This document shows, piece by piece, positions 29,770 to 60,506 of a stretch of 64,000 bases of DNA. The notes below the pieces were generated by a model, which saw nothing but the letters and a program-made list of their open reading frames with translations, was not told where the DNA came from and searched no databases. A program made the translations under genes and the position numbers. Where the stretch lies: positions 32,110 to 96,109 of IMG/VR virus record IMGVR_UViG_3300037054_000079, one strand, 5' to 3'. Each line of letters starts with the position of its first letter. Within the stretch, counting starts at the first letter, position 1. The DNA comes from a virus.

Positions 29770-30491
29770 TGGGCGCGCACTACACCAAGCATGAAGTGTT
29801 CGCGAGCGGCTGGACCGGATGGGTTTCAGCCGCTCGCCTCCATAAGATTGCGTGCTGTGATTGTGGCCTGATCCAAGACTTTCGATTTCGCGTCCGCGAT
29901 GGCGTGATAATGTTCAAGGCCCGACGCAATGTCCGCTCGACCGCGCAGCGGCGGCGCACCCCGCAAGAGTTTAAGAGGCGACGCCGATGATCGAGATAAA
30001 CGTCCACCTGAGAAGTGCGATTTCGAAGACCCGAGACCGGGAGCTTGCGCGCTTTGTGATCTGCAATACCAACGAGGACGCGCCGCCCGGCGAGGGGCAT
30101 TATTACGTCGAGTCTTACCGGGGCCGCTCCACGGCGGCGCTCGACCGGCGGAAGCCTAGCCGGTCCGGCGAGGTCCGCCATCACCGCCGGGAAGCCGAAC
30201 ACGTGCTCAATCTAGTCGCCAAGGCGCTACAGGCCATGGGATACGGGCAGGCCCCGGCGGAGCCGCGCGCCGCTGCGCCCCCGGATCGGGCGCGGCATCG
30301 GACGCCCGATTGCATCAAACCTCCTAGAAACACGTTTCTAGGTCGCCACGGGCCTGTTTTTCAGGTGTCGAGCGGCGGCCCCTAAAGGCTCGATTTCAAC
30401 ACCGTATCCCGGATACGGGTCTAAGCTGTTGAACCTATTGATTTTTCCACCGGAAAGCGCCAAAACCGGCCCGGCAGTGGAAAAGGCCCTG

Positions 30492-30510
30492 TTAACCGGG
30501 CCTTAACCAT
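30492..30510 (+). promoter_or_regulatory. CtrA-binding box
   Basis: TTAA-CCGGGCC-TTAACCAT matches TTAA-N7-TTAAC; lies upstream of a TTGCAT...TATGTT promoter-like element. Confidence 0.65.
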
Positions 30511-30626
30511 CGCTTCAACTCGTGCCATTTTATTCTTGCATTCAAAATCCAATGAGCTATGTTCCGGTCGTGGCCGCTACCGGCCCGGAACAGAGGGCGA
30601 TCTCGCCCCATAAAAGGACTACTTCA

Positions 30627-31658
30627 ATGGCTGACAATATCGACTTCTCAAACGACCGCGCAAACATCGCCTACCTCGGCTCGCGCAAGGACGTGTGGCA
30701 TCATCACGGTCAAGAGATGCTGGCGGGCCAAGCGACCGCCGAATGGCGCAAACAGGCTGGCCTCGAATTTTCGGCCATCCTCACTCCCGTCTTCACCAAC
30801 TTGAACGGCCCCGACTTCGCGCATATCGCCGCTGATAAACGCATCGTCGAGATCGACAACAAACGCGCTATCGTGCGCAACGACACTGGCGCGGTTCTCG
30901 GCTTCGCCTCTGACGGCTATCAGCCCCACCAACCTTCGGAAGTCCTCGATTGGTTTGACCGTTACATTTCGGTCGATGACCGCTTCCAACTCGACGTTGC
31001 CGGTTCGCTCAAGGGCGGCGCGATCATTTGGGCCACTGCCAAGTTCAACGGCGAACACACTGTCGCTGGCGAAAAGCATACGGCCCGTGTGCTCATGTCC
31101 ACCACGTTCGACGCGACTCGTGCGACCATCAACAAGATGACCGAAACCCGCGTGGTCTGCAATAACACTCTCGACACCGCGCTGGCCGATGGCAACTCTT
31201 GCATCCGTACCACGCACCGCTCGAAGTTCGATGCGGCCCGCGTCGGCAAGGAACTGGCCGTGCTGGCTCAGGGCGTCGCGAACTACAAACAGATCGGCGA
31301 TGCGCTGGCGCAGAACGAGATGGCGAAAGAGGAAGTCGCGCAGTTCTTCAAGACGCTGCTCGACATCCCCTTCGATCAGGCGAAGGAAGATACCTCGACC
31401 CGCAAGCTTAATCAGTTCGCGGCGTTGAACCAAGCCTACCGCACCACGGTCGGCGAGCGGAATGGTCAGGGCGGCGACGCTTGGACCGCTTTGCAGGCGA
31501 TCACCCGCTACGTCGATCATGATCGGTCGGCGCGCGGCGACAACGAGAGTGAGGCCCGGTTCGCCTCTGCTCAGTTCGGCACGGGAAACGTGATGAAGGG
31601 GCGCGGAATGCAACTTCTCCTGCCCCGCATCAAGGACAAAGTATTGATCGCAGCCTAA
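30627..31658 (+). CDS. DUF932 (LGT_TIGR03299-like phage/plasmid) protein
   Basis: VWH..G, AGL, AGSLKGG.IIW, RVVCNNTL, AWTALQAITRYVDH. Confidence 0.9.
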   Translation: MADNIDFSNDRANIAYLGSRKDVWHHHGQEMLAGQATAEWRKQAGLEFSAILTPVFTNLNGPDFAHIAADKRIVEIDNKRAIVRNDTGAVLGFASDGYQPHQPSEVLDWFDRYISVDDRFQLDVAGSLKGGAIIWATAKFNGEHTVAGEKHTARVLMSTTFDATRATINKMTETRVVCNNTLDTALADGNSCIRTTHRSKFDAARVGKELAVLAQGVANYKQIGDALAQNEMAKEEVAQFFKTLLDIPFDQAKEDTSTRKLNQFAALNQAYRTTVGERNGQGGDAWTALQAITRYVDHDRSARGDNESEARFASAQFGTGNVMKGRGMQLLLPRIKDKVLIAA

Positions 31659-40641: not shown

Positions 40642-41337
40642 TTATTTTTCCATAAGCCAGCCGAGGAACCCGGGCTTAGGTTCGGGGACCGGGGGCTTCA
40701 TAACTGGCTCTCGCGCGGGCGCGGTCAGGTCAACCTTTTTCATTTCCTTGATGGCCGTCGCCTGATCGACGTTGACGTGCGGCTCCCTCATGACTTCCTC
40801 GTCGGGGATAGGCGGCTCGTTCACATTGTAGCACATCTTGCGTTCGGCCTTGCGACGGCTGACGAGACCCGGCAGGACTCGGCCCGCCGCCTTGTCGTAC
40901 AGCAACAGCGCATCGCAGCCCTTGTTCGGCTCACCAGCGTTGATGTAGCGCGCCATGCTCGACTTGCACATAGCGCCGCCGCCAATGTTGTAGGTGGCCG
41001 AGAGCATAGCCGCGTGCCTGTATCCCGGCATGGGAACATGGATGCAACGCTCAAGCATCTTCTCGTAGCGCGGCAAATCATCCGCGAGCATCTTTTGGCA
41101 CTGAATTTTTGTGTATGTGTCACCGATCTTCACGTTCTCGATGTGGCCGTAGCAGACGGTGTTGACGCCTCGCGGATCGAAGCTTTGATGCTCACCGACC
41201 GACTTGCCGCCGTGCATGTTCGTCATACCCTCGACAACAACGAGGAACGCAACCGTGACGGCGACCCACCCGCCGCGACCCTTCGGGTTGATCTTCGTAA
41301 CTTCGGTGTCGAGAGCGGGGTTGTTCGTGTCACTCAT
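40642..41337 (-). CDS. endolysin (GH24 lysozyme), possible SAR type
   Basis: N-terminal hydrophobic segment, EG...D..GVNTVCYGH, YNIG, GLVSRRKAE. Confidence 0.9.
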   Translation of the reverse strand: MSDTNNPALDTEVTKINPKGRGGWVAVTVAFLVVVEGMTNMHGGKSVGEHQSFDPRGVNTVCYGHIENVKIGDTYTKIQCQKMLADDLPRYEKMLERCIHVPMPGYRHAAMLSATYNIGGGAMCKSSMARYINAGEPNKGCDALLLYDKAAGRVLPGLVSRRKAERKMCYNVNEPPIPDEEVMREPHVNVDQATAIKEMKKVDLTAPAREPVMKPPVPEPKPGFLGWLMEK

Positions 41338-41662
41338 GTGGGTTATACCTAGTGTGCCGCCCTTTGCGGGTATTTTTGAAGATGGTCAGTATTTCACGTA
41401 TCCGGTTTTGGCGGTACGGCGACAACAGGGGGTAGAGGGTCATCATTATAGCAGCGGCCCGATAGCCTGCTATCGACCAAATAAAGAGTGGTTTTTTCCG
41501 GCGCAAGCATATATTTCCGTACCCGAAAATACGTTTGAGCTTTTCAAGCGACGGGCTATATTTTTGACCGGAGGACACAACTGGCGTGCGCCTGCTAAGA
41601 GTAAAACACCCTTCGCCATCTAAAAACCCCGCCGCCCAATGAAGATCATGTGTGGAAATCAT
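41330..41662 (-). CDS. free-standing single-motif LAGLIDADG endonuclease
   Basis: WAAGFLDGEGCFTL. Confidence 0.8.
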   Translation of the reverse strand: MISTHDLHWAAGFLDGEGCFTLSRRTPVVSSGQKYSPSLEKLKRIFGYGNICLRRKKPLFIWSIAGYRAAAIMMTLYPLLSPYRQNRIREILTIFKNTRKGRHTRYNPHE

Positions 41663-41970
41663 AGGTCAACGCCCTTTTGGTTCATCAAGCGGAAGATGCC
41701 GCCGACAAAGACGATGAAGATGACGATGGCCGCGAACAAGCGCGGCGGGAGCCACGACATGAACGCAGGTACGATCATGTACGCGGCGGTGAAGGCCATC
41801 AACACGAATTGCGCCCGCATTGACCACAGCTTGTGAAAGTCTCGCCAGTTCGGATCGAACCACAACTGCGCTTGCTGACGCGGCGTCTCTTTCCCGATTT
41901 GCGTCGGGTCAGTCTGCACCACGCGAGCGGGTGCGACTTCGAGAACAACTGGCGCGGCGGGTTCGGTCAT
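41659..41970 (-). CDS. putative holin
   Basis: NWRDFHKLWSMR followed by two TM helices, upstream of endolysin. Confidence 0.7.
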   Translation of the reverse strand: MTEPAAPVVLEVAPARVVQTDPTQIGKETPRQQAQLWFDPNWRDFHKLWSMRAQFVLMAFTAAYMIVPAFMSWLPPRLFAAIVIFIVFVGGIFRLMNQKGVDL

Positions 41971-42214
41971 ATTGAAACCTTTTTGGCTAAGAACCGTGTC
42001 ATGCCTTCTTCCGTGTCGCATCGGCTGTCTATAATCACAAGGGCGACACCCTTGTCCAAAATTATCTTCATGTCCGCGAGCAGTGCGCGTGGCTTCTCAG
42101 CCTCACATTCTGCAATCGAGCCGAAGGTCTTATCGTGCACAACTGCCACCGGGTCACCGGGACCAATAGGCGACAGAAGCAAGTACAGATAGACGGCGGA
42201 CGGCGACATTACGC

Positions 42215-42505
42215 TTACGCCGCCGGTTGAGCCGGGTTCGGATTGACAAGTGGAGCCGGAGTGAGGGGCTTCACAACGACAGGCATCGCGGGGCTGATGG
42301 TCTTTACCGCATCGGCAACTACCTTGGCCTTCGCGGTGGCCACATCGGCGGAAGCTTTTGTTTCGAGCGCCCGGAGCGCGGCCCGGAGATCGGACGGGAC
42401 TCCGCTGATTTTGTCTTTGATGTACTGAGACGAGAACACACCGAGCAGGAACACCGCGCCAAGTGCGCCGAGTAGCCAAAAGCCGTCAAGAGCGAGTTTA
42501 AGCAT
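42215..42505 (-). CDS. membrane protein at head of lysis region
   Basis: N-terminal TM; SD GGAG. Confidence 0.6.
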   Translation of the reverse strand: MLKLALDGFWLLGALGAVFLLGVFSSQYIKDKISGVPSDLRAALRALETKASADVATAKAKVVADAVKTISPAMPVVVKPLTPAPLVNPNPAQPAA

Positions 42506-42544
42506 GGGAGGTCTCCGGGGGAAGGGGGTTAATGTATCCCGTTA

Positions 42545-42571
42545 ACTATACGAAACTGCCCCGTTTGTCAA
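42545..42571 (-). promoter_or_regulatory. candidate promoter for lysis genes
   Basis: TTGACA-15 nt-TATAGT on minus strand (short spacer). Confidence 0.4.
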
Positions 42572-42596
42572 CAAAAGGATTGACGAGGGTCTAACT

Positions 42597-43184
42597 TCAA
42601 GCCTTCATATGGTAATTTCGGCTTGATCGCGACGGTGGGCGCGGGTCCGGGATGTCGGAACGCAGCCATTCGAGCGTTGGCGCTCCAAGTATTTCTTGCG
42701 TCCAGCCTGACATGCTACGCACGAATGGTGCGAGTTCCCGAATGTGCGAGAGCCACGAGCGCCGAAATCCGTGCGCATTGACCCACGGTATTTGACGTTT
42801 GAAGTGCAGCCCCTCCGGCTCCATCGGAACTCCGCAACAGATTATTTTCCGATACTGTTCTTCGCGCGCGATCTTGACGGCGAACAGACCAACCGACCCA
42901 AGCCAGTCGCGGGTCCACTGATCGACGTTCGCGTAGCCTCGATGCGCCCACAGGACAGCGGGGCGCGCTCTCCCGGCAGCCTCACGACGCGATAGCCACC
43001 CGACGAGATTGTCCGGGTGCAGAGTGACACCGTGGTCAATAGCGGTGGGGAAGTCCTCGATCATGGTGTTGCAGACGAAAACCTTCCACGGCAACCCGGC
43101 GGCGGCGCACAGCTTGAGCGCCGCGACGTATTCGGCGAGCGGATCATTGCCGCCGCCTATGACCAGCGCGACGGTATCGGTCAT
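42597..43184 (-). CDS. putative glycosyltransferase-like protein (Rossmann start, MptE/GT29-like pattern)
   Basis: ALVIGGG, VFVCN, GSVGLFAVKIA, KIICCGVPM, HF. Confidence 0.5.
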   Translation of the reverse strand: MTDTVALVIGGGNDPLAEYVAALKLCAAAGLPWKVFVCNTMIEDFPTAIDHGVTLHPDNLVGWLSRREAAGRARPAVLWAHRGYANVDQWTRDWLGSVGLFAVKIAREEQYRKIICCGVPMEPEGLHFKRQIPWVNAHGFRRSWLSHIRELAPFVRSMSGWTQEILGAPTLEWLRSDIPDPRPPSRSSRNYHMKA

Positions 43185-43391
43185 TGCCGAACTCGGAACG
43201 TGATCTCCGGAGTGGAAGCGTAGAACACCGGACCGTGACTGTCCGGGCCGCCCTCGCGCCATATCAGGTTGCCGCCGGGCATCCGATGATTGCACATATA
43301 GAGCGTGGCGGCACTTTGCGCTTCCTCATATGTGCCGCACAGCACTTCGATCAAGAAGAACTCGTCGTTCTGCGCGTGAGCAAAACGCCCC

Positions 43392-44342
43392 TCAACTATC
43401 TTTCCGCTTCTCCGCAGCATTTGCGTTCTCCCGATACCAATCCCAAGTTTCCTGTAGCCCCCGGTCGAGCGAGTATTCCGGCGCGAACCCAAGCCCGCGC
43501 AGCCGACTCAAGTCAAGCGTGCAACACATCCGCCCGTTCGGCATATTGGTGTCGTACTTCACCCGGTCGGGCGATACGCCGCTGATCGCCGACAGTTTCT
43601 CGACGACCTGCTTGATGCTCCATGTTGTGCCGTTGCCGATGTTGATAGCCCCGCTCACATTGGCCATCGTGATATGCACGATCCGAGCGAGGTCTTTGGA
43701 GTAGAGGAAGTCACGCTCCGGCGAGCCGTCGCCCCACAACTCGACTGACGTGCCCAATTTCTCCGCCATATCAAATTTCCAGATCAGCGACGGCAGCACG
43801 TGCCCGTTGACTGGATCGAACTTGTCGCGCGGCCCGTACAGGTTGCCCGAGACGAGGTAGACCCAATCGAGGCCGTAGCTGTCACCGTAGGCTTCGAGCA
43901 TGGCGAGCATCCCGCGCTTGGCGTGTGCGTAGGCGCTCTCCGAGCCGTGCGGGCGACCGTCGAAGATAGTTGACTCAGGGATCGGCGTGACTTTAGGCGG
44001 CCACGCATAGATCGCGTTCGTACCCATGACGACAATCTTTTTCACGCCGACCTGCTTCGAGGCGTCGATCACGGCGGTATTTATGAGCGTGTTTTCGAGG
44101 TATGCGAGACCTTGGTGCTTCATGTTGCCGATTATCCCGTAGACGCGGGCGGCGGCATGGAAGACGTAGACCGGGTGAACCTGTTCGAACAATTTGGCGG
44201 TGGCGTTGAAGTCGCGCAGATCGCAGTTCGACCGTCCTATGCCGACTACGTTGGAGAAGCCCTGAGCTTCGAGATGATCGACAACGGCGGACCCGGCGAG
44301 GCCAAGCGCGCCGGTCACGAGAATGGTGTCTGACTGTTTCAT
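43392..44342 (-). CDS. GDP-4-keto-6-deoxymannose epimerase/reductase (Fcl/GMER-like SDR)
   Basis: VTGALGLAG, HAAARVYGI, YAHAKR, NLYGPRD.F, HVLPSLI, WGDGSPERDFLY; GSSC replaced by GTNA. Confidence 0.88.
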   Translation of the reverse strand: MKQSDTILVTGALGLAGSAVVDHLEAQGFSNVVGIGRSNCDLRDFNATAKLFEQVHPVYVFHAAARVYGIIGNMKHQGLAYLENTLINTAVIDASKQVGVKKIVVMGTNAIYAWPPKVTPIPESTIFDGRPHGSESAYAHAKRGMLAMLEAYGDSYGLDWVYLVSGNLYGPRDKFDPVNGHVLPSLIWKFDMAEKLGTSVELWGDGSPERDFLYSKDLARIVHITMANVSGAINIGNGTTWSIKQVVEKLSAISGVSPDRVKYDTNMPNGRMCCTLDLSRLRGLGFAPEYSLDRGLQETWDWYRENANAAEKRKDS

Positions 44343-45265
44343 GCTTTCCCTCGGGGGTTCATAGCAGCGATGTGGGCGCGACGCTGCAACATCAAGCGTT
44401 GCGTCTCCAAAATTGACTGTTGATGCGATGGACGGGGACTGCGACCCGACCGCGCGAGAGCGATTTGTGCTTCGTCTCGCATTAGCTGAGTTCGTGAGTG
44501 ACTCTGTTCTTTTGACCACGACATAGCCGGGGGCATCGGCGGTGGTGGCGCAGACTTGCCAGCGAGATAAAGTTCGCGTGCCTGCATAAGAGGTCGCCAG
44601 AACTCCGGAGCCTTGACAGAGTGGATCATGACCGCCCCGCGCAGAGCCGCGTTCCACCCCAACTCAAAAGACCGGCGGTCCGAAGAAATTGGTCCAGTAA
44701 TCCCATCGCTGAAATTCTTCCACGGGACCCCGGCTTTGACCGCCAGTTGCACCATGTAATGATCTATGAAAGGAAGCGTCGGGTTCATGTCGAGGTTCTT
44801 GTCCATGATGGGGGCAAGTAGTCGCTCGATCACTTTTCGGCTCATGAAGTACGGCGGCTGGAAAGCGAGCCGTGGAAATCCATCCATGTAGAACCCGAGT
44901 TCGCGCTCCCGCACGTTATCGACGACTAGGTTTGACCACAAGAAATCCGGCTCAGCGTAGAGGTAGTCCGGGATTTTCGGCGAGAGACAAACGCTATCCG
45001 AGTCGTGGCACAGGAAAAAGTCCTCCGGGTACTCCAACAGCATCTTCAAGTGCTCGTACTGACGGTCGAGCGAAAGCTGCCCGGTGTACGCGCGCTTGCC
45101 GCCGAAGCGGCTCTCGATGCCGGGCTGTTGAATTTCGACTTTCGAGTCTATCGGAGACATGATGGTGACCGGGCACTCGTGGTGCAGATACATCTCACGA
45201 GCCGAGGACACTTGAGCAAGGTCCCCTGCGTAGCAATGCACCGAAACGCGCGTGTTCTTATTCAC
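44339..45265 (-). CDS. putative GT-A glycosyltransferase with C-terminal extension
   Basis: HDSDS (DxD), FQPPYFMSR, IDHY, HSVK; paralog of 45262..45963. Confidence 0.65.
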   Translation of the reverse strand: MNKNTRVSVHCYAGDLAQVSSAREMYLHHECPVTIMSPIDSKVEIQQPGIESRFGGKRAYTGQLSLDRQYEHLKMLLEYPEDFFLCHDSDSVCLSPKIPDYLYAEPDFLWSNLVVDNVRERELGFYMDGFPRLAFQPPYFMSRKVIERLLAPIMDKNLDMNPTLPFIDHYMVQLAVKAGVPWKNFSDGITGPISSDRRSFELGWNAALRGAVMIHSVKAPEFWRPLMQARELYLAGKSAPPPPMPPAMSWSKEQSHSRTQLMRDEAQIALARSGRSPRPSHQQSILETQRLMLQRRAHIAAMNPRGKA

Positions 45266-45963
45266 GAATGATCCCCGTTGTATAGCTTGTGCGCGTGCAT
45301 GAGGCACATCAAAGTCTCTCGCGTCTTGACTGCGTGAACAAAGGTCGTTCCGCGATAGCGCACGGCATCCCACGCGGCTCCGGCGAAGAAGGGATCGTAA
45401 GTCGGGAAGCTGACCGCTTCGGGAAATCCCTTCCAGTGCAGTCCGGCTTTGATCGCCAATTGGATGAGCCAGTAGTCGATGAACAGCATCTCCGGGTTCG
45501 GGGTAACACCATCGGCGACGGCGAGCAATCCCTCGATTGTCTTGCGTGACATGAACCACGGGGGATGAAGGGCGATGTGGGGAAATCCTTCGGGATAGAA
45601 TGCTTGCTGTTGCGGGATGTCATCGAGCTTGAGGTTTGTCCACAGCAGGTCCGGCTCCGCATAAAGGTAGTCAGGAAGTTTCGGCGTGAGACAGAATGAG
45701 TCAGCGTCGTGGATCAAGAAGAAGTTTTCCGGGAAAGTCAGCAAGATTTTAAGATGCTCTCGCATACGAGTGATTGCTTTTTCCCCAATATAGCAACGCT
45801 CGCCACCGAAGCGCGTCTCGACATCCGGTATCTCAACCTTCGAGTCTTCGGGTGATAGGACTACGAGCGGACAATCGTGGTGCAGATAGATATCGAGAGC
45901 GTTGACGACTTGTTGTCGGTCACCAGCATAACAACACACAGCGACGCGCGTGTCTTCGTTCAT
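45262..45963 (-). CDS. putative GT-A glycosyltransferase
   Basis: HDADS (DxD), [16 protein letters not shown]. Confidence 0.65.
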
Positions 45964-47003
45964 GGCTTGGTTTCCTCTGCAACATCATGCGCGACCATCT
46001 CGCGCACGAGTTCATGGAAGCTGACTTGACACTTCCATCCAAGCTTCTCAAACGCCTTCGACGGATCGCCGAGCAGCGCATCGACTTCGGTCGGGCGGAA
46101 ATACTTTGGGTCAACATGAACGAGCTTACGGCCAGTCTTTCTTGAGAAGCCGTATTCGTCTACGCCATCTCCCATCCAGCCGATCTCAATCCCGATTTCC
46201 GCAAACGCCAGTTCGACGAACTCCCGCACCGAATGCGTCTCGCCACTGGCGATCACATAGTCGCCCGGCTCCGGTTGTTGTAGCATGCACCACATCGCTC
46301 CGGCGAAATCGCGAGCATGGCCCCAATCGCGCAGGGCGTTCAAGTTGCCGAGATAGAGACAGTCTTGCTTGCCTGCGCTGATCGCGGCGACCGCCCGAGT
46401 GATCTTGCGCGTCACAAATGTCTCACCGCGCCGGGGCGACTCGTGATTGAACAGGATGCCGTTCGAGGCATGAAAGCCGTAGGCTTCGCGGTAGTTGACC
46501 GTGATCCAATAAGCGTACAGCTTCGCCGCGCCGTAGGGGCTGCGTGGATGGAATGGTGTGTGCTCGTTTTGCGGTGGCGGCGAGTTGCCGTACATCTCGG
46601 ATGTTGAGGCTTGATAAAATCGGGTGTCACATCCCAATCCTAGAATGCGCAGACCTTCGAGCAGGCGCAGCGTTCCCATCGCGTCCGAGTTCGCGGTGTA
46701 CTCAGGCGTCTCGAAGCTCACATGCACGTGGCTTTGCGCGGCCAGATTGTAGACTTCGGTCGGCTGCACTTCTTGCATGATCCGAAGTATACCCGTGGAG
46801 TCCGTCATGTCGCCGAAGTGCAACGTGAACTTCGCGCCGCGTTCATGCCGATCATGTTGTAGGTGGTCGATGCGCGCGGTGTTGAACGACGAGGACCGGC
46901 GCTTGATGCCGTGGACCTCGTAGCCCTTGTCGAGCAAGAGTTCGGCTAGGTAGCTGCCATCTTGGCCCGTCACGCCTGTTATAAGAGCGACTTGCTTTGT
47001 CAT
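45960..47003 (-). CDS. gmd: GDP-mannose 4,6-dehydratase
   Basis: [64 protein letters not shown]. Confidence 0.98.
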
Positions 47004-47839
47004 GCTTTTCCTCTTTGGTATATTTGCTTCTGGAAGATCGTTGCGCGCTCCGCCCGGATACGGTCCACGGTTATCCGGTTGTTTTGAAGTTGCGGCGAGG
47101 GTGACAGGCGGAGCCACGGAGCGGCGCGCATAAGTAGCCCCACTTTATTCCGTCCGGGCGCACTCGCCCCGAGTAAACTCGCGCGGGCAATCAGGTCATC
47201 TCGGGTCAAGATAGCAGGCCAGTTGGTGACACAATGATACCCAAAGCTGCGGGGTCTTGCTGTCGGGATGATTGGACCACGTGAAGTCCAACCTTCGTAA
47301 GAGAAATCCCGAGCGACATCCTCCGGTGCCCACTTGAAGCCGCCACGAGCTTCACACTCTCCCCGATAGGTCTGCGAGATTTGCATGTCATTAAAAATCT
47401 TGAACTTCTCGTCGTAACAAAAATCTATGAGTCGCTTTGTTACCAAAGCGAAGCCGCCGTTGCCGACTTTACATCCGGGCCAGTTCTGACACATGCCAGC
47501 GCCCCACGGTGCGCCGATGTAGTCGTACTGCAAAAATTCGTCCCGCCACATAGCCGGATCGCAGACCCCGGCGTCCCACTCCATGAGCAGGGCGTGCGAC
47601 GTTTCAATGCCGCGCGCTGCTTCGGTATAGTAGAATGCGCCCGACACTCTCTTATCCGGCCAGTCGGCGACCTTGACGTACCGAGCGCCGGGCACGGCGA
47701 GGCGTTCGCAGTCATCCGTATAGATCAGGACGCCCCCGCCGAAGTTGACCTTGCTTATGAGATCGAGGACCGTGATGCGGGTCAGATCGTGCGCGCGAGT
47801 CGTCGGAACGACCAATGTCACGTTCGAGATTTCGGTCAT
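47000..47839 (-). CDS. DUF5672-like putative glycosyltransferase
   Basis: [32 protein letters not shown]. Confidence 0.75.
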
Positions 47840-48903
47840 GCGCGCATTCCCATGTTCGCGCGAGCTATCATGGCGCGCTGTAATTGAAGCTGTTGCCCGG
47901 AGAGAGTTGGGCGCGGTGTTGTCTCCGCCGGGTCAAACATCTCTGAAAGTGGTGTCCGAATTATGTGGTCGTTTTTCGGACAAATCGTGGACAAAAACTC
48001 GCGCAGTTTTGCAGTGGCGACCGGCATGTCGAGAACTTTCGCGCAATACCTACCACAAGAACCCCCGCAACTGCAAGGCTCAATTGGCTCGATCCCAAGG
48101 AACGGCGAGAAGCGCGCTCCGGCGCTCGCCCACGAGGCGCGCTCATACCCTCCGATGATTGACACCACAGGGGTCTCAACAGCCATGGCTAGGAGCGTGC
48201 CGAAGCCGCCGGACGTGAACACGAGGGCCGCGCGCGAGAACAATGCCGCAAGCTGTTCGAAGACAAGCTCGCCTTTGTGAAAGGTCACGTCCGCCTTGAG
48301 TTTTGGCCCGACGATCCACTCGCGTCCGGGCACGAGGTCGGCGACCGACACGACAAAGAAATCGTCACGGATGGTGGAGAGCAGTTCCGCGTATTGCGTC
48401 TCGTTGGCGTTGCGCACCGCGCCGCCCGCCCACTCAGGTCGGGCGGTGAGCGGTCTATAGACCATGATTGGTTTCACTGTATTCCACTCTTTCAGCATTT
48501 GTTGAACAGGCGGTTTCCAGTGATCGGGCACAGGCATGCGGAAGTCAGCGGCGGCGAAATCGCAGCCGGTAGCAGCGCACAGAGTTTCAAGGATTGTCTT
48601 GCTTGGGGTCGAGCCGATGCTACGCCCGTTATAGGCGACGCCTATTGAGCGGATGCCCGGCGGCGCGGCACGCGAGAACTTCGCAGCCTCGCTTGATCGC
48701 GCCGCATTCTTCGTTTGAGTGCGGAGATTGACTCTCTTAGACAAGAACTTTACATCGGTAAAATCATCGTAGATGCACGGCCAAGAAGTTTCGAGCCACA
48801 CATCATGGCGCTGCCTAAGCTGATGGATGATCGCCCTCATGTGAAGGCAATCACCCATGCCGTGAAATCCACGGATCAGTAATGGGGACTTCGCTTCCGC
48901 CAT
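47836..48903 (-). CDS. GT9-like (GT-B, heptosyltransferase-type) glycosyltransferase
   Basis: RGFHGMGDCLH, LAALFSRAALVF..G...LAMAVETPVVSIIG, PC.C...C. Confidence 0.75.
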   Translation of the reverse strand: MAEAKSPLLIRGFHGMGDCLHMRAIIHQLRQRHDVWLETSWPCIYDDFTDVKFLSKRVNLRTQTKNAARSSEAAKFSRAAPPGIRSIGVAYNGRSIGSTPSKTILETLCAATGCDFAAADFRMPVPDHWKPPVQQMLKEWNTVKPIMVYRPLTARPEWAGGAVRNANETQYAELLSTIRDDFFVVSVADLVPGREWIVGPKLKADVTFHKGELVFEQLAALFSRAALVFTSGGFGTLLAMAVETPVVSIIGGYERASWASAGARFSPFLGIEPIEPCSCGGSCGRYCAKVLDMPVATAKLREFLSTICPKNDHIIRTPLSEMFDPAETTPRPTLSGQQLQLQRAMIARANMGMRA

Positions 48904-48920
48904 GGCACGGCCTTTTATTA

Positions 48921-48998
48921 TGGTCAGGGCGACAGGATTTGAACCTGCGACCTCCTGTATCCGAGACAGGCGCTCTAACCAAACTGAGCTACGCCCTG
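48921..48998 (-). tRNA. tRNA-Pro (anticodon CGG), CCA encoded
   Basis: Cloverleaf CAGGGCG/CGCCCTG-A-CCA, D-arm GCTC/GAGC, anticodon arm CCTGT-CTCGGAT-ACAGG, T-loop TTCAAAT. Confidence 0.96.
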
Positions 48999-49004
48999 AA
49001 ACCT

Positions 49005-49382
49005 TTAGCCGTGCGTGATAGATGCAGCGGTTAGGGTAACTGGTTGGCCCGCGACAATCGAGACCGAGGACAGAACGATGTCGGTGGCGCTCAGGCCGAC
49101 CGTGAGGCCGGAGATGATGACCGTGCCAGCCGCGTTGAATGCTTCGGCGGCGGCGGCGGTGCCCGAGTTGGCTGCGGTCGCGCAAGTGAGCGGCAAACTG
49201 GAAAACGATAGGACGCCGGAAGTGACGGTGCCGCACGTAGCCGCGAAGTAGATCGTCGCGAGCACGAGGCCCATCGCGGTCGTGCCGATTTCGAGATAGC
49301 CCGGAGGCGTACCGGCGTCAATCGCGGTGACCACATCGGTCATGCGAGTCGTTTTCAGCGTCGTGTTGTATGTGGCAGTCAT
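49005..49382 (-). CDS. virion structural protein (tail fibre-associated)
   Basis: Thr/Ala-rich beta protein, SGTAAAA..F...G motif. Confidence 0.7.
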   Translation of the reverse strand: MTATYNTTLKTTRMTDVVTAIDAGTPPGYLEIGTTAMGLVLATIYFAATCGTVTSGVLSFSSLPLTCATAANSGTAAAAEAFNAAGTVIISGLTVGLSATDIVLSSVSIVAGQPVTLTAASITHG

Positions 49383-49404
49383 GGTGGTCTTCCTTTCGTG
49401 GAGG

Positions 49405-50967
49405 TTAGCAGACGAAAAACACGCGCCGCAGGGTTGTCAACGCTGCACCGCTGCCGAGAGCCTGAAATATGTCCGGGGCTTCAACAACAGTGAACGTGCC
49501 TGAGACTGGCGTATAGCCTATTACGTTAACCACGTCAACTGCTTCAATTGAGGACCATCTTCCGCTGACTCCCGGCGTGGTGGCGAGAGCCGCGAAGATG
49601 TCCTTGGCTTCGGTGACGGCGAGGGAACCAGTAATCGGTCGAATGCCGTAGGCCGAGAAGATATCCGGGGCTTCGGTCGAGAGCCACGTGCCGAGAGTAT
49701 GTATGTAGCCGGTGGCCGCGAACGTATCTGCGTTCTCAGTCACCATGAAGGTCGCGGTGATCCCCGCCGCTACGCTCCATCCCGCCGCCGCGAACGTGTC
49801 GGGGGTGTCGGTGACAGCCATAGTGCCCGCAAGGCCACCCGGATCGACAACGATGGCGTCAACGACCATGCCCCAATCAAGTTCGCCTTCGGTGAACGTC
49901 TCAGTCTCGCTAGAGAGCGCCGCGATAGAACCCTTGTAAGCGGAGTGCGTGTACTCCCAATCGGTGCCCAAGGTGTTCGACACGTGGTCGATGATAGTGA
50001 AGCCGGTCGGCGGCGTGCCAACTGCGTTCGAGTTGTTGCCCGAACCCCAAAACGCAATAGCCATGACGTTCGAGCCATTGGTCGCGACGCCGCCCACGGA
50101 AGGATTAGTTGTGCTTCCGGTTACGTCAGTGTTAGTTGCCGGAAGGGAGCCGTTCGTATCCCACGGCGCGGAGATAGTTGCGCCCGCGACGGCGAACACG
50201 GTGACATTGGCGTTGTCCATCGCCCCATTGAAGGTGACGGTAGTAACATCGGCGGTGAGCGGCGACGGCGCGTGCGCCCACCATATCTCGACTACTTGTG
50301 GATTAGTATGGCGACCGCCAGTGAACGTCAGACGCTTGCGAAGCCCCCACGTTAGGCCAGCGGTATTAGATATTGAGGATACCTGCGGCGAACCCGCAGC
50401 GGCTAGTTCCGCGCCGATCAGTGCGATAATGATATCATCGCTGCGCGTAGTCGTCAGCGTCGCGGCGGCGGTGGTCGCGCTGTGGCTGCTTCCGGATGCA
50501 AAACCATCCGGGATAAGCATCCGAAAGCCGCTGATCTTGAACTCGATCTCGCGTATGTATGGACTGTTGCTCGTCGAGCCGCCGGTTTGAAAGAGACCAT
50601 AATAGCGATAGCCAGTGCTGTTCGTATAGCCGTGAGCTTCCGAAGCCGATGTCCCGCCGAGATTGATACCTGTCGAAAGATCGGTCCACGTCGAGTTATC
50701 CGGCGATCCGCGCCACGACCACGTACCTTGTGACTGTATGCCGCTCTGATACCACGTGAACTCGTCAATGATAGGATGCTGACCAGCGCCAAAATCAAAT
50801 ATGACGCTTGCAGCAGTTTGTCCGCTGTTCCACCAATAGGCATCGGCCTGCGAGCCATCGAGCAGCGCCGTGCTGACGCCGGACGAGACCAAGCCGCCCG
50901 AAGGCGTTACGGTAATCGCCGGGTTGCGGATGCCCGTGCCGCCGAGATTGGTGTAAGCAGTCGTCAT
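49405..50967 (-). CDS. tail fibre / receptor-binding protein with discoidin-like domain and C-terminal repeats
   Basis: FDFG...GSPDNSTWT...YRYY...IREIEF; six TE..D.F.A.G repeats. Confidence 0.7.
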   Translation of the reverse strand: MTTAYTNLGGTGIRNPAITVTPSGGLVSSGVSTALLDGSQADAYWWNSGQTAASVIFDFGAGQHPIIDEFTWYQSGIQSQGTWSWRGSPDNSTWTDLSTGINLGGTSASEAHGYTNSTGYRYYGLFQTGGSTSNSPYIREIEFKISGFRMLIPDGFASGSSHSATTAAATLTTTRSDDIIIALIGAELAAAGSPQVSSISNTAGLTWGLRKRLTFTGGRHTNPQVVEIWWAHAPSPLTADVTTVTFNGAMDNANVTVFAVAGATISAPWDTNGSLPATNTDVTGSTTNPSVGGVATNGSNVMAIAFWGSGNNSNAVGTPPTGFTIIDHVSNTLGTDWEYTHSAYKGSIAALSSETETFTEGELDWGMVVDAIVVDPGGLAGTMAVTDTPDTFAAAGWSVAAGITATFMVTENADTFAATGYIHTLGTWLSTEAPDIFSAYGIRPITGSLAVTEAKDIFAALATTPGVSGRWSSIEAVDVVNVIGYTPVSGTFTVVEAPDIFQALGSGAALTTLRRVFFVC

Positions 50968-50970
50968 CGG

Positions 50971-51810
50971 TTAGCCTGTGATTGCCGCGCGCAGCGTTAT
51001 CGAGATATCGGCGAGGGTGGCGTCTTGTACCGCCGGGGCGTTGATCGTCAAGATATCGCCCGGAACGAACGTGACCGCTCCGGTAAACGAGAACGAGACC
51101 GCTCCGCTTGTGGGGAATATCACACTGCCGATTGCCGCGCCATTCTGAGCAAGCGGGAAAGTCGCAGAGGCAGTTGCCGCCGTGACATAATCGGCTTGCG
51201 AAGCGGTCAATCCACTAGGGAACGTGATAGTATCAGGACTCTTGTATCTAAGCACCAATTCGCCCGTATTTGGCATGCCCGAAATGAACAGCGCGAGGTT
51301 GCGATAGTCAGTGACCCATGCCGCATCGAAGTCGGTGCCACTGTTCTTGGCGAGTCGTTGTGCGATTGTGCCACCCGGCGTAAGCGCGTTCGTCGCTGCC
51401 GCTATCAGAAGTCCGTAGTAGTTGTGGCCGAGTCCATCGTTTGCGGAGGCACTAAAAGTGGCCGCGCTTGTGTGCGGAAACAGGATCATATAGGTCGCGT
51501 TCGCGTCCGTGACGATATCGTAGGGGGCATAGACGGTGACGGGTGCCCAAGGGCCTCGGAAATTCCATTGTGCAGTCGGCAAAATATACGGCCCGAGGAC
51601 CGCGTGGTTCGTGAGATGCACGAACATCTGATTGCCGTTGACGACGAAATAGTCGATGTCCGCGTTTTGTCCTGCGTGATCCTGCAATGCCGCGAGTTGA
51701 CTGGCGAGAACCCAAAAGTTGATGTCAATCTGATTTGCCGAGAGATCGGCTCCGAGACCGCCGCCCCATCGAGTTGCATCTGTTTCGCGGTAGGTGATTT
51801 GGTCAACCAT
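50971..51810 (-). CDS. tail protein / fibre adaptor
   Basis: RGPWAPVTVY..YDIV, GGTIAQRLAKNSGTDFDAAW motifs. Confidence 0.7.
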   Translation of the reverse strand: MVDQITYRETDATRWGGGLGADLSANQIDINFWVLASQLAALQDHAGQNADIDYFVVNGNQMFVHLTNHAVLGPYILPTAQWNFRGPWAPVTVYAPYDIVTDANATYMILFPHTSAATFSASANDGLGHNYYGLLIAAATNALTPGGTIAQRLAKNSGTDFDAAWVTDYRNLALFISGMPNTGELVLRYKSPDTITFPSGLTASQADYVTAATASATFPLAQNGAAIGSVIFPTSGAVSFSFTGAVTFVPGDILTINAPAVQDATLADISITLRAAITG

Positions 51811-58031: not shown

Positions 58032-60506
58032 TTATCTCACCCATGAGGGCTTACGCCCGGCGGAAGAAGATTGCTGACTGATCGCATAACTCGTGAGCTT
58101 CTCCGCCACGTCCTGCGGTGCGTGTAAGCCGTCGAAGTGATGGCCGTCAATGCTCAAGTTCAAAACTGATCCGGCCTTTTGTGCCCCGCTCGCTGCCGGT
58201 CGTCCAACTCCGGCGAGCACCGGGCCGCCCATGGCGAAGCCGGGGAACTGCATATTGTTTAGTCTGTCGAACACATCCGAACCGTAAGCGCGCACAGCGG
58301 CGGCGCGCATGACGAACTCACCGTTCGAGAGTCGCGCTAAGATGCTGTCGCTTGTGCCACTGCCGGGTCCACGAATAGCACCGCCGTCAGCGTTACCGCT
58401 AACGGGAGCGGAGGCGGGCGATTGCGGTTGCGATTTCGATTGCGGTTCACTCCCGGCGGCGTCTATGATCCTTTTTAATGCGGCGGCGGCTGCCTGAGCC
58501 TGTTCTGAGAGTGCCGAAAGCGGCGCGATGGTCGCCTTGGCTTTTTCGCCAAGGTCGGAAACGGCGGCTGTCGCTGGTGCTTCCGGTGCTGACACTTTCG
58601 GTGCTGGCGCTCCCGATGTCGGCGCTGGCGCTCCCGACGCTGGCGCTCCCGACGCTGGCGCTGGCGCTGCGCCGTCCCGGAGCTTTTGCCAGTCAATCCC
58701 GTCAAGGACACTCATATGATCCCTGAATTGGCTTAATGATCCAGCGGCTCCGATGGCTTGCTCTTTGAGGTCCCCGAGCGGCTTGCTGTCCTCGGGCTTA
58801 ACCACCGGAGGCGCGTTGCCATCGACGTTCTGCCGTCGCTGCGCAGCCAACTCATGTAGCAGATTGGTGAAAAAACCCGCCGCTCCGCCAGTGCCGCCGG
58901 GGATGACATCTTTCTTATCTGCAACTACTTTCAGAACATCGGACCGAGCTTCCGCCCCTAAACTGGCGACCTTCGACACAATATCTGTGAGCTTCTGCAA
59001 CTCCGCGCCCTGTTGGATAAAGGCTGGATTTTTCTCTCCCTCTGAGGTTACTTTTTTAATGTCCAGATTTTCGAGGGCTTTCACAATCTCCGCGCTGCCC
59101 TGTCCTTGACGCCCGCCACCCCTTTGCGCGATCATGGCGTTCTTATCGGCTTCGGTCAATCCGCTCCGTGGATTTTGAAACAGCTTGGCCAGTTCGGCCA
59201 TGAAATCTTCCGGCGCAAATTTGCGACCTTCATCCCGCGCGCGCTGCTGAGCCTGCTCTTGAACGGCCTGATTTTTGTTCCGGGTTGATATATCGTCGAG
59301 ATGCCCGGCAAGCGGACCTTCACCACGCATACCCCCTTGTATGAGTCGGGGGTCTTTCAGCATCGTTTCGTATTGTTTTTCGGCAGCCTCTTTCACGTGC
59401 GTCAGCGCCATAGCAAGCGCGTTGGCAGCACGCGCCGGAGCAGTGAGGCTTTCGGCGAGGTCCTTGGTCTGTTTTTGAAGTGCTTGGTCGTAGTGAAGTT
59501 GTGCTTTCTCGACCGGAGAAACCGCTGTTTGATCCTTCGTCTGTTTCAACATCGAGTCGGAAAGAGACTGAATGCTTTTTGCAAGCGACTGCTGCGCTTG
59601 TTCCTGTTTCAAGGCTAAGTCGCGTGGGGCAGTCTCTTGTTTATAATCCGCGTTCTTTGACGCAAGCTCCGCCGAGTACACACTCTGTTGCGCGCGACGG
59701 ATTTGCAGTTGTTTATTCGCCTCTTTATTCGGCGTGCCGCTTTGCAAATCCTGTAGCCGCTGTTGTGCTTCCTCGACACCGAGGCTCGCTGACGTAGCGC
59801 CGAGATCGGCAGCGGCAACCGAGGTATCGCGCATCGCGTCGGCTAGAGCATTGACGGATGCTTGGACACTTAGCGCGGCGGAGCCAACAGAAAGCATATC
59901 ATTGGAGGCTGTCGATGCCGCGTCCGCAGCGGCAAACTGCAAAGTATGATAGGCGTCGGCGACCGATATAATATCTTCGCGAACTTTGAGTGCTTGATCT
60001 TGCGCAACCTCTGCGTTTTTGGCCTGTGCATCTTGGACCTCAAGATTAGCCGATACAACACCTTCGGCGGCTGACTCTTGCACAGCCCCGGAAGTACGCA
60101 TTATCCGATTAACTTCGGAGACCGAGTTGGCTACGCTAGTTGTCATACGCTGGACGGCGCGTTCCACCTGTTGCGGACCGACTCCAAACTTTGCGAAGGC
60201 TGCTTCCAGTCCTTGCATACCCGCTATATTAGTGCCGAAGGACTCTCCGAGGTCTTCCAACTTGACTCCGGTCTCAGCCGTTTTCTCCGCGAGTGTCGCT
60301 AACGCGACGCCCATAGCTGTAAGAGCGATGACTATACCGGCGGCCCCCTTGCCAAACAGCGCAAGGCCGCTTGATCCGCTTTCCGCAGCTGTGGCTATTG
60401 ACTCGAACGCACTCTCGGCCTCGTGCGCCATCGTGACAAAGGTCGCGCCGACATCACCGACGCCTTCGACGGATATGTGTTGAACAATGTCTTCAAGATC
60501 AGCCAT
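58032..60506 (-). CDS. tape measure protein
   Basis: Ala/Gln-rich helical 824 aa; GGAIRGPGSGTSDSILARLSNGEFVMRAAAV motif. Confidence 0.92.
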   Translation of the reverse strand: MADLEDIVQHISVEGVGDVGATFVTMAHEAESAFESIATAAESGSSGLALFGKGAAGIVIALTAMGVALATLAEKTAETGVKLEDLGESFGTNIAGMQGLEAAFAKFGVGPQQVERAVQRMTTSVANSVSEVNRIMRTSGAVQESAAEGVVSANLEVQDAQAKNAEVAQDQALKVREDIISVADAYHTLQFAAADAASTASNDMLSVGSAALSVQASVNALADAMRDTSVAAADLGATSASLGVEEAQQRLQDLQSGTPNKEANKQLQIRRAQQSVYSAELASKNADYKQETAPRDLALKQEQAQQSLAKSIQSLSDSMLKQTKDQTAVSPVEKAQLHYDQALQKQTKDLAESLTAPARAANALAMALTHVKEAAEKQYETMLKDPRLIQGGMRGEGPLAGHLDDISTRNKNQAVQEQAQQRARDEGRKFAPEDFMAELAKLFQNPRSGLTEADKNAMIAQRGGGRQGQGSAEIVKALENLDIKKVTSEGEKNPAFIQQGAELQKLTDIVSKVASLGAEARSDVLKVVADKKDVIPGGTGGAAGFFTNLLHELAAQRRQNVDGNAPPVVKPEDSKPLGDLKEQAIGAAGSLSQFRDHMSVLDGIDWQKLRDGAAPAPASGAPASGAPAPTSGAPAPKVSAPEAPATAAVSDLGEKAKATIAPLSALSEQAQAAAAALKRIIDAAGSEPQSKSQPQSPASAPVSGNADGGAIRGPGSGTSDSILARLSNGEFVMRAAAVRAYGSDVFDRLNNMQFPGFAMGGPVLAGVGRPAASGAQKAGSVLNLSIDGHHFDGLHAPQDVAEKLTSYAISQQSSSAGRKPSWVR

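Follow-up and report, generated by a model that had tools for sequence, protein, structure and literature searches.

To our knowledge, glycosylation of the virion of tailed phages has so far been documented only for mycobacteriophages, and the phages in question reportedly encode glycosyltransferases only. Virion O-glycosylation was described for Che8, Corndog and Myrna (Freeman et al. 2023, Cell Host Microbe, as cited in PMC12619734). Among the viruses of eukaryotes, autonomous glycosylation is known from the chloroviruses and giant viruses, of which PBCV-1 encodes Gmd/GMER as well as the transferases of its capsid glycan (PMC9614988, PMC4691112). In bacteria, soluble O-glycosyltransferases that act on flagellin are known in two classes, Maf and the TPR/GT-B enzyme FlmG (PMC7591256). 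Here we describe a cassette of eight minus-strand open reading frames (ORFs), filling 42597-48903 of a 64,000-nucleotide stretch (the window) that corresponds to bases 32110-96109 of the linear, 96,109-bp IMG/VR virus record IMGVR_UViG_3300037054_000079. In order of transcription, it encodes a GT9-like protein (P0001), a DUF5672 protein (P0002), Gmd (P0003), two GT-A glycosyltransferase (GT)-like paralogues (P0004 and P0005), an Fcl-like enzyme (P0006), a small protein and a Rossmann-type protein (P0008, family P8). We consider the cassette to be a real, conserved and self-supplied glycan-building unit. The explanation that best accounts for the whole, to which we give a probability of about 0.5, is a late-strand glycan-assembly cassette whose transferases are docked by a C-terminal tail and whose acceptor is part of the virion.

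The likeness to the mycobacteriophages, as far as they are covered by the account cited above, lies in soluble, cytoplasmic enzymes and in the position of the GT genes, within the structural operon of a tailed phage or next to it. Unlike them, the cassette adds genes for a sugar nucleotide, its transferases come from four unrelated families with a tag in common, and its host is probably Gram-negative. With the chloroviruses and giant viruses it shares a virus-encoded GDP-6-deoxyhexose pathway and soluble GT-A-type transferases (the capsid glycosyltransferase domain of PBCV-1, 2p6w, aligns with the P0004 model at Z 11.4), whereas those viruses infect eukaryotes, carry N-linked capsid glycans and use other enzyme families. 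We know of no shared C-terminal tag in their systems.

The sugar-nucleotide supply involves two enzymes. P0003 passes the equivalog cut-off of TIGR01472 (579.8 bits against 415, residues 4-342 of 347), matches PF16363 at 2.6e-151 and is, judged by these profiles, a true GDP-mannose 4,6-dehydratase, as the initial annotation had it. P0006 aligns end to end with the GDP-fucose synthase (GFS, also Fcl or GMER) of E. coli, and its top PDB matches are all GDP-fucose synthases (2e-43). The earlier label of an Fcl-like short-chain dehydrogenase/reductase (SDR) thus holds for the subfamily, but P0006 falls far below the cut-off of the GDP-L-fucose synthase equivalog NF047922 (203.4 bits against 500). 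T108, Y138, K142 and H181 align with S107, Y136, K140 and H179 of 1e6u/1bsv, so that the reductase triad and the His are kept, whereas Ala110 stands in place of Cys109 (E. coli numbering), the general base of the epimerase. In an alignment of 71 phage Fcl-like proteins, the site reads G-T-N/G-A in all 18 members of the clade to which the window belongs, and the Cys is kept in 52 of the 53 proteins from outside it.

Published work assigns the epimerisation dyad of GFS to Cys and His. The activity of the human enzyme is abolished by C116A (PMC12362431). The GFS homologues DdahC (Thr/His) and MlghC (Tyr/Arg), Cys-less as is P0006, are C4 reductases without epimerase activity (PMC7949155). We infer that P0006 is a reductase-only enzyme giving GDP-D-rhamnose or GDP-6-deoxy-D-talose; no RmlC-type epimerase is found among the cassette genes. 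Because the epimerase Cys is replaced by Ala in all 18 clade members, the pathway product is probably a GDP-6-deoxyhexose other than L-fucose, and the earlier proposal that Gmd and GMER make GDP-L-fucose here does not fit; L-fucose could still be formed if another base stood in for the Cys. As the record holds no NTP_transferase match, the GDP-mannose must be host-derived. In one relative (L006:7962-9986), the gmd match falls into two pieces (residues ~1-54% and 53-100%) about 1 kb apart, which could be due to an insertion such as an intron, an intein or an endonuclease.

The other large proteins of the cassette resemble transferases to different degrees. P0004 and P0005 are 50% identical (E 1e-84). 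The AlphaFold2 (AF2) model of P0004 (pLDDT 97.3) has a GT-A fold, its best Foldseek matches are all GT31 enzymes (E 1e-9 to 1e-7), and VIA-align gives Z scores of 18.6 for CHSY3, 17.4 for B3GalT5, 16.8 for B3GalT6, 16.5 for C1GalT1, 16.0 for B3GNT2 and 14.9 for Manic Fringe, against ~10-12 for other GT-A families. D86-x-D88 and H210 of P0004, which answer to the DxD motif after beta-4 and the C-terminal metal-binding His of GT-A enzymes, are invariant in 50 sequences. No match was found in Pfam, NCBIfam or PHROG (E up to 0.1, 0.01 and 0.01), nor among PDB sequences at E up to 1, so that the sequences themselves do not place the two proteins in GT31; by the modelled structure of P0004 they are GT-A fold proteins nearest to it. 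The family comprises at least 173 clusters, without Pfam annotation. Similarly, the AF2 model of P0008 (pLDDT 93.4) is nearest in VIA-align to the Maf flagellin glycosyltransferase 5mu5 (Z 11.4 over 169 residues) and the CstI sialyltransferase 2p56 (Z 11.0); SteA was also matched, an MptE-like HPPK kinase reached Z 9.8 and unrelated folds at most 7.5. Foldseek gave CstII a probability of 0.99, but at E 2e-3. These matches point to the single-Rossmann core of the Maf/GT42 (CstII)/MptE-like superfamily, while P0008 has no Pfam match and does not belong to PF01973 (MAF_flag10) or GT42 at the sequence level. The two paralogous DxD proteins and the Rossmann-type GT-like protein of the initial annotation are both borne out by the models.

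P0001, annotated as GT9-like, matches phrog_6804 (1e-35) and, locally, RfaQ (E 0.005, residues 207-259), but has no Pfam match and thus stays below the gathering threshold of PF01075. Among 56 relatives, one matches PF01075, weakly (E 0.13), and the weak matches of the family are to GT-B-type families (Epimerase_2, PS_pyruv_trans and Glyco_transf_9). An Atlas model can be aligned over 276 residues (TM 0.66) with a cluster whose members are 100% PF01075; hhalign to the RfaQ-matched motif of a PF01075-bearing protein gave E 0.03, a PDB profile search of the family gave no match, and some homologues were named heptosyltransferase by JGI. The RfaQ match, the Atlas model and the JGI names are suggestive of a GT9-like GT-B protein but do not prove it; what stands of the annotation is the RfaQ and Atlas similarity, and what is missing in P0001 is the Pfam match. 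A nearly invariant CxCx3Cx3C cluster, possibly a metal site, lies near the C-terminus of the family (residues ~270-290; window 47836-48100), outside the part of P0001 that aligns with its homologues in D3-like phages (residues 8-252).

P0002 is a DUF5672 protein, as annotated: it scores 51.6 bits with PF18922 against a gathering score of 24.4 (1e-13). The family has 4,220 representative relatives, and ten long ones include four with the architecture DUF5672-TPR-Glyco_transf_9, one DUF5672-TPR-methyltransferase and one DUF5672-TPR. DUF5672 was also considered as a diverged GT-A, an idea that was dropped after null results of hhalign against the GT-A family and of a PDB profile search. The small ORF has no family match (Pfam, PHROG, NCBIfam). 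Its homologues directly precede the P8 gene in three relatives (L006, 3e-17; L008, 5e-9; L018, 3e-8), so that it is likely to be a genuine gene whose product partners P8.

The distribution of the cassette was followed in IMG/VR, where a pattern scan with the GT-A family gave 76 loci. About 17 of these have the tail genes of the window and the full set of GT9-like, P8, Gmd, one or two GT-A, DUF5672 and Fcl-like genes. The order of its genes varies, but the set always follows the gene of a 125-aa virion protein, which was detected in 15 relatives and stands ahead of the cassette in each of them; wherever lysis genes can be seen, they come after the set. In a second scan, made via the 125-aa protein and independent of the cassette, all loci of at least 57% identity carry the cassette, and more distant loci have neither the tail genes nor the cassette. 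The cassette is coextensive with the clade, whose tail proteins have diverged to 25-54% identity. That all relatives examined with the same tail genes carry it, also those reached via the virion protein, despite shuffled gene order and diverged tails, points to a core trait more than to a sporadic moron.

The GT-A gene adjoins the Fcl-like gene in 72 of the 76 viral loci. The other ~59 loci are mostly from phages of 60-75 kb. Their minimal module, of GT-A and Cys-bearing Fcl-like genes and often Gmd, is followed within a few genes by collagen-like fibre genes and adjoins the gene of a 439-aa protein. The latter protein is 78-89% identical across loci (L036:10971-12290, L026:12730-14055, L072:12937-14235), and the GT-A genes of these phages share 31-46% identity with P0004. 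Searches with it of PHROGs, Pfam, PDB sequences and deposited phages were all negative and lent no support to a role as capsid protein. The GT-A family has turned up only in contigs from uncultured viruses and metagenomes: neither 50,697 deposited phage records nor a pattern-limited scan of 185,579 GTDB species-representative genomes gave a match. The phages of the clade are tailed, uncultured and apparently lytic. Within it, one locus (L014:11385-18163) has two DUF5672 genes, the second of which, together with fcl, is set apart from the first part of the cassette by an insertion of ~5 kb. In another (L018:13283-17542), an array of 31 tRNA genes directly follows the cassette, and other relatives have one to three tRNAs of varying identity at the cassette borders.

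The transferase-like proteins share a C-terminal tail. In the window, P0001 ends in GMRA after a basic tail, P0002 in RGKA and P0008 in HMKA; P0005 has a 75-aa Pro-rich/basic tail ending in RGKA, and P0004 is untagged. In 15 relatives, the ending G-[LVIQ]-[KR]-A is shared by the DUF5672 and P8 proteins, by one of the GT-A paralogues and by roughly half of the GT9-like proteins. It comes after a Pro-rich linker and a 20-40-residue basic segment rich in Gln and Arg. Gmd, Fcl-like and virion proteins end otherwise. Counted over all ORFs of 80 aa or more from the record and these 15 loci, transferase-like proteins end in [KR]A in 22 of 39 cases with an overlapping downstream start and in 15 of 28 without, against 0 of 63 and 7 of 322, respectively, for all other ORFs; G-x-[KR]-A is found in 28/67 and 0/385. 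For the 15 loci only, the counts are 34/58 against 3/258 for [KR]A (Fisher p = 1e-26) and 27/58 against 0/258 for G-x-[KR]-A (Fisher p = 3e-23). These counts come from related sequences and are not independent events, although four non-homologous families are involved. Outside the clade, the ending occurs at the background frequency of 2.4%.

An origin in the Shine-Dalgarno sequence and ATGA overlap of a following gene was rejected because the ending is absent from the 63 other coupled genes and equally frequent (54-56%) in transferases coupled or not, and because the terminal Ala is encoded by four codons and followed by TGA, TAG or TAA. With their net charge of +4 to +7 and their scarcity of large hydrophobic residues, the tails are hydrophilic and unlike classical membrane-targeting helices. 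The GT9-like protein lacks the tail in the 8 loci where P8 directly follows and has it in 7 of 8 others, which could reflect a complex, or merely two sublineages.

The tail would be a common recognition signal for the transferases, most economically read as a means of docking them all to a single platform. Less likely than not, it is instead a degradation or remodelling tag limiting the lifetime of the transferases, which is the main alternative, or a relic of recombining gene-end modules. ClpX signals of the MuA type likewise consist of basic residues followed by a small C-terminal residue, which suits the extreme C-terminal position and basic context of the tail, and the shuffled gene order of the clade implies that modules do recombine. 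However, a relic would decay, and this tag has persisted across four families without homology to each other, its terminal Ala encoded by four codons and followed by any of three stops, irrespective of a coupled downstream start and with no such ending in other coupled genes.

That the tails form a localisation code, docking four transferase families but not the sugar-nucleotide enzymes on one virion assembly intermediate, is a tentative and rather unlikely proposal. The docking partner could be the HK97-type capsid protein, by analogy with encapsulin cargo peptides or the C-termini of scaffold proteins; no TPR or PDZ match was found in the record as a partner of the tail. Encapsulin cargo peptides (GSLxIGSLK, LTVGSLRR and similar) follow a Gly/Pro linker (PMC10960027). 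They bind an HK97-fold shell, and the likeness lies in a short C-terminal peptide of the type G-x-hydrophobic-basic, after a flexible Pro-rich linker, on unrelated enzymes; here, the motif G-L-K-A stands at the very end, and the resemblance is a lead only. A further K-A terminus, ...TCPT(K/R/L)Y(N/T)KA, occurs in another lineage (L050:9432-9989, L056:9435-9998, L058:9420-9998 and similar loci), on a conserved protein of ~190 aa whose gene immediately precedes that of the GT-A protein.

In the proposed mechanism, Gmd would dehydrate host GDP-mannose and the Cys-less Fcl-like enzyme would reduce its product at C4 to a GDP-6-deoxyhexose such as D-rhamnose or 6-deoxy-D-talose. In the cytoplasm, the transferase-like proteins would then act on a single acceptor, to which the shared tail (Pro-rich linker, basic Gln/Arg-rich stretch and G-x-K/R-A) brings them, and assemble on it a glycan of several sugars. 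In agreement with the soluble proteins initially annotated, none of the eight cassette proteins has a membrane segment (maximum 19-residue hydropathy of at most 1.58, against 2.61 for the holin). In cultured phages, homologues lie within virion modules. D3-like Pseudomonas phages encode homologues 35% identical to P0001, annotated as GT9/GT-B, between head-closure and tail-component genes and beside a methyltransferase; in Paracoccus phage Pkon1, the gene of the sole cultured P8 homologue, 33% identical, comes directly behind the major capsid gene and overlaps its end. Because of this context, the DUF5672-TPR-GT9 fusions and the solubility of the proteins, a cytoplasmic protein acceptor tied to virion assembly is favoured, and we give even odds to a virion protein modified before or during assembly. 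The earlier claim of a glycan on virion proteins thus gains a virion-linked context, while the acceptor itself remains an inference and no glycan was shown. The 125-aa virion protein was considered as a dedicated acceptor and set aside, as it is present in many phages without the cassette.

A protein outside the virion, such as a host flagellin, pilin or receptor surface protein or a non-structural phage protein, is an improbable acceptor. What speaks for it is that P0008 shares the Maf core fold (5mu5) and that relatives of P0002 are fused to TPR and GT9-type domains in a FlmG-like layout, since both features suggest O-glycosylation of cytoplasmic proteins at large (PMC7591256) and not of virions in particular. 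On the other hand, P0008 covers only the central Rossmann domain (195 aa against 632 aa) without a Pfam MAF_flag10 match, and the phage has neither a CMP-nonulosonate pathway nor a TPR or other recognisable substrate-binding domain. Late timing would also leave little time to rebuild host appendages, and the linkage to virion modules recurs in three phage lineages.

It is rather unlikely that the cassette remodels a host envelope glycan late in infection, be it the lipopolysaccharide (LPS) core, O-antigen, capsule or exopolysaccharide, which could mask receptors and so save progeny from debris, or exclude competing phages. The basic tails would in that case hold the transferases at the inner membrane, near lipid-linked acceptors, and their presence on the transferases but not on Gmd/Fcl is what peripheral membrane enzymes would lead one to expect. 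The GT9-like similarity of P0001 also agrees with an envelope role, and cyanophage gmd genes are, in at least one account, usually read as host-surface auxiliary genes (PMC9602691). Against such a role, no flippase, ligase, polymerase or Gtr-type membrane protein was seen, confirming the lack of flippase and GtrAB genes in the initial annotation, and the cassette does not have the make-up of a Gtr-type serotype-conversion unit. In addition, the tails are hydrophilic, the pattern-limited scan of GTDB representative genomes gave no prophage copies, and the cultured-phage homologues lie inside head/tail modules that are silent in lysogens. As the 96-kb record has no tyrosine integrase match and the GTDB representative genomes no GT-A homologue, lysogenic conversion is disfavoured.

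Glycosylation of phage DNA bases is the least probable function and would surprise us greatly. Glycosyltransferases that hypermodify phage DNA are known, at least in the summary of Pyle et al. 2024 given in PMC12619734, and a Mom-like DNA modification gene is present elsewhere in the record. However, as the initial annotation had noted, the 96-kb record contains no ThyA-type hydroxymethylase (PF00303) and no TET/JBP match (PF12851, which matched none of the control genomes either) to provide an acceptor base. GDP-6-deoxyhexose adducts of DNA are not known, and the cassette lies on the late structural strand and not among replication genes. The Mom-like protein (phrog_1384, 2e-18; L079:9924-10670, record 29924-30670) is encoded just upstream of the window, and the phage may modify its own DNA by a Mom-like route unrelated to the cassette.

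Several points weigh against a virion acceptor and the mechanism outlined above. There is no direct evidence for any acceptor, and no obvious Ser/Thr-rich acceptor extension was found by a composition scan, which was uninformative. Canonical GT9 enzymes act on the LPS core. Since the GT31-type PDB neighbours of P0004 use UDP-sugars, P0004 need not be the enzyme transferring the 6-deoxyhexose. A failure of the GT-like ORFs to model as GT folds had been named in advance as contrary evidence; P0004 (GT-A) and P0008 (Maf/CstII) do model as such, and a GT fold was not demonstrated for the DUF5672 protein. Because relatives place tRNA genes around the cassette, its slot is a general accessory-gene site, and as the region between tail and lysis genes collects tRNA genes in relatives, position alone does not imply a virion function. 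Finally, as the record is only ~90% complete by estimate, absences from it are not absolute.

The arrangement of the locus (Table 1) agrees with the initial annotation in its tightly packed, coupled minus-strand genes, the tRNA-Pro before them, the place between tail-fibre and lysis genes and the co-orientation with tail genes at the distal end of the late structural strand. All seven ORF junctions overlap, six of them as ATGA/GTGA and the seventh through the small ORF, which starts 29 nt inside fcl. The tRNA-Pro is not a conserved part of the cassette, since the borders in relatives carry tRNAs of other kinds or at other positions, or none. A scan of 41500-51000 gave 7 promoter-like sites (shuffled 3.6 ± 1.9, thus not clearly above expectation) and 5 terminator-like sites (shuffled expectation 8.1). 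Because no promoter or terminator signal above chance divides the cassette from the tail genes, it is probably part of the late transcript. Downstream, a 96-aa protein with one hydrophobic segment precedes the holin, HNH endonuclease and endolysin genes. The terminase genes lie on the minus strand at the start of the record, the small one first and then the large one, with the portal gene after them; relatives of the portal belong to phages of Roseobacter, Pseudomonas, Variovorax, Xanthomonas and Caulobacter. A homing endonuclease gene (phrog_314, 1.5e-39; L078:12430-13302) separates the two terminase genes, and the HNH gene between holin and endolysin is a second gene of mobile type.

Table 1. 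Cassette genes and neighbouring features, in window coordinates
Feature	Position	Strand	Basis or context
Tape measure	58032-60506	minus	late structural strand
Tail-fibre-like genes	49405-51810	minus	upstream of 125-aa virion protein
125-aa Ser/Thr/Ala-rich virion structural protein, last structural gene before cassette	49005-49382	minus	phrog_3758
tRNA-Pro(CGG)	48921-48998	minus	ARAGORN; between last virion gene and cassette
P0001, GT9-like GT-B transferase-like protein, 355 aa	47836-48903	minus	phrog_6804, RfaQ match, Atlas model
P0002, DUF5672 protein, 279 aa, tail ending RGKA	47000-47839	minus	PF18922
P0003, GDP-mannose 4,6-dehydratase (Gmd), 347 aa	45960-47003	minus	TIGR01472, PF16363
P0004, GT-A glycosyltransferase-like paralogue 1, 233 aa, untagged	45262-45963	minus	AF2 model, Foldseek, VIA-align
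P0005, GT-A paralogue 2, 308 aa, GTG start	44339-45265	minus	50% identity to P0004
P0006, Fcl-like SDR, 316 aa	43392-44342	minus	PDB GDP-fucose synthase matches, residue alignment
Small ORF, 79 aa from ATG at 43420	43181-43420	minus	homologues upstream of P8 gene
P0008 (P8), Maf/CstII/MptE-like single-Rossmann protein, 195 aa, ending HMKA	42597-43184	minus	AF2 model, VIA-align
Holin	41659-42021	minus	PHROGs
HNH endonuclease	41330-41662	minus	PHROGs
Endolysin	40642-41337	minus	PHROGs

Phage glycosylation cassettes with nucleotide-sugar genes are an already known kind. What is new here is the clade-wide Cys-less Fcl, the C-terminal tag specific to transferases and a GT31-like family met so far only in contigs from uncultured viruses and metagenomes. 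The natural Cys-less Fcl homologue may be a route to GDP-D-rhamnose or GDP-6-deoxy-D-talose, and the short C-terminal tag might be portable for enzyme targeting. A docking code, if true, would be a bacterial-virus counterpart of the retention signals of Golgi enzymes and would imply a transient glycosylation assembly line. Furthermore, if the virion is indeed the acceptor, a clade that supplies its own sugar nucleotide and has transferases of four families would extend complex, self-sufficient virion glycans well beyond the mycobacteriophages, which would be relevant to the immunogenicity, stability and host-range biology of phages.

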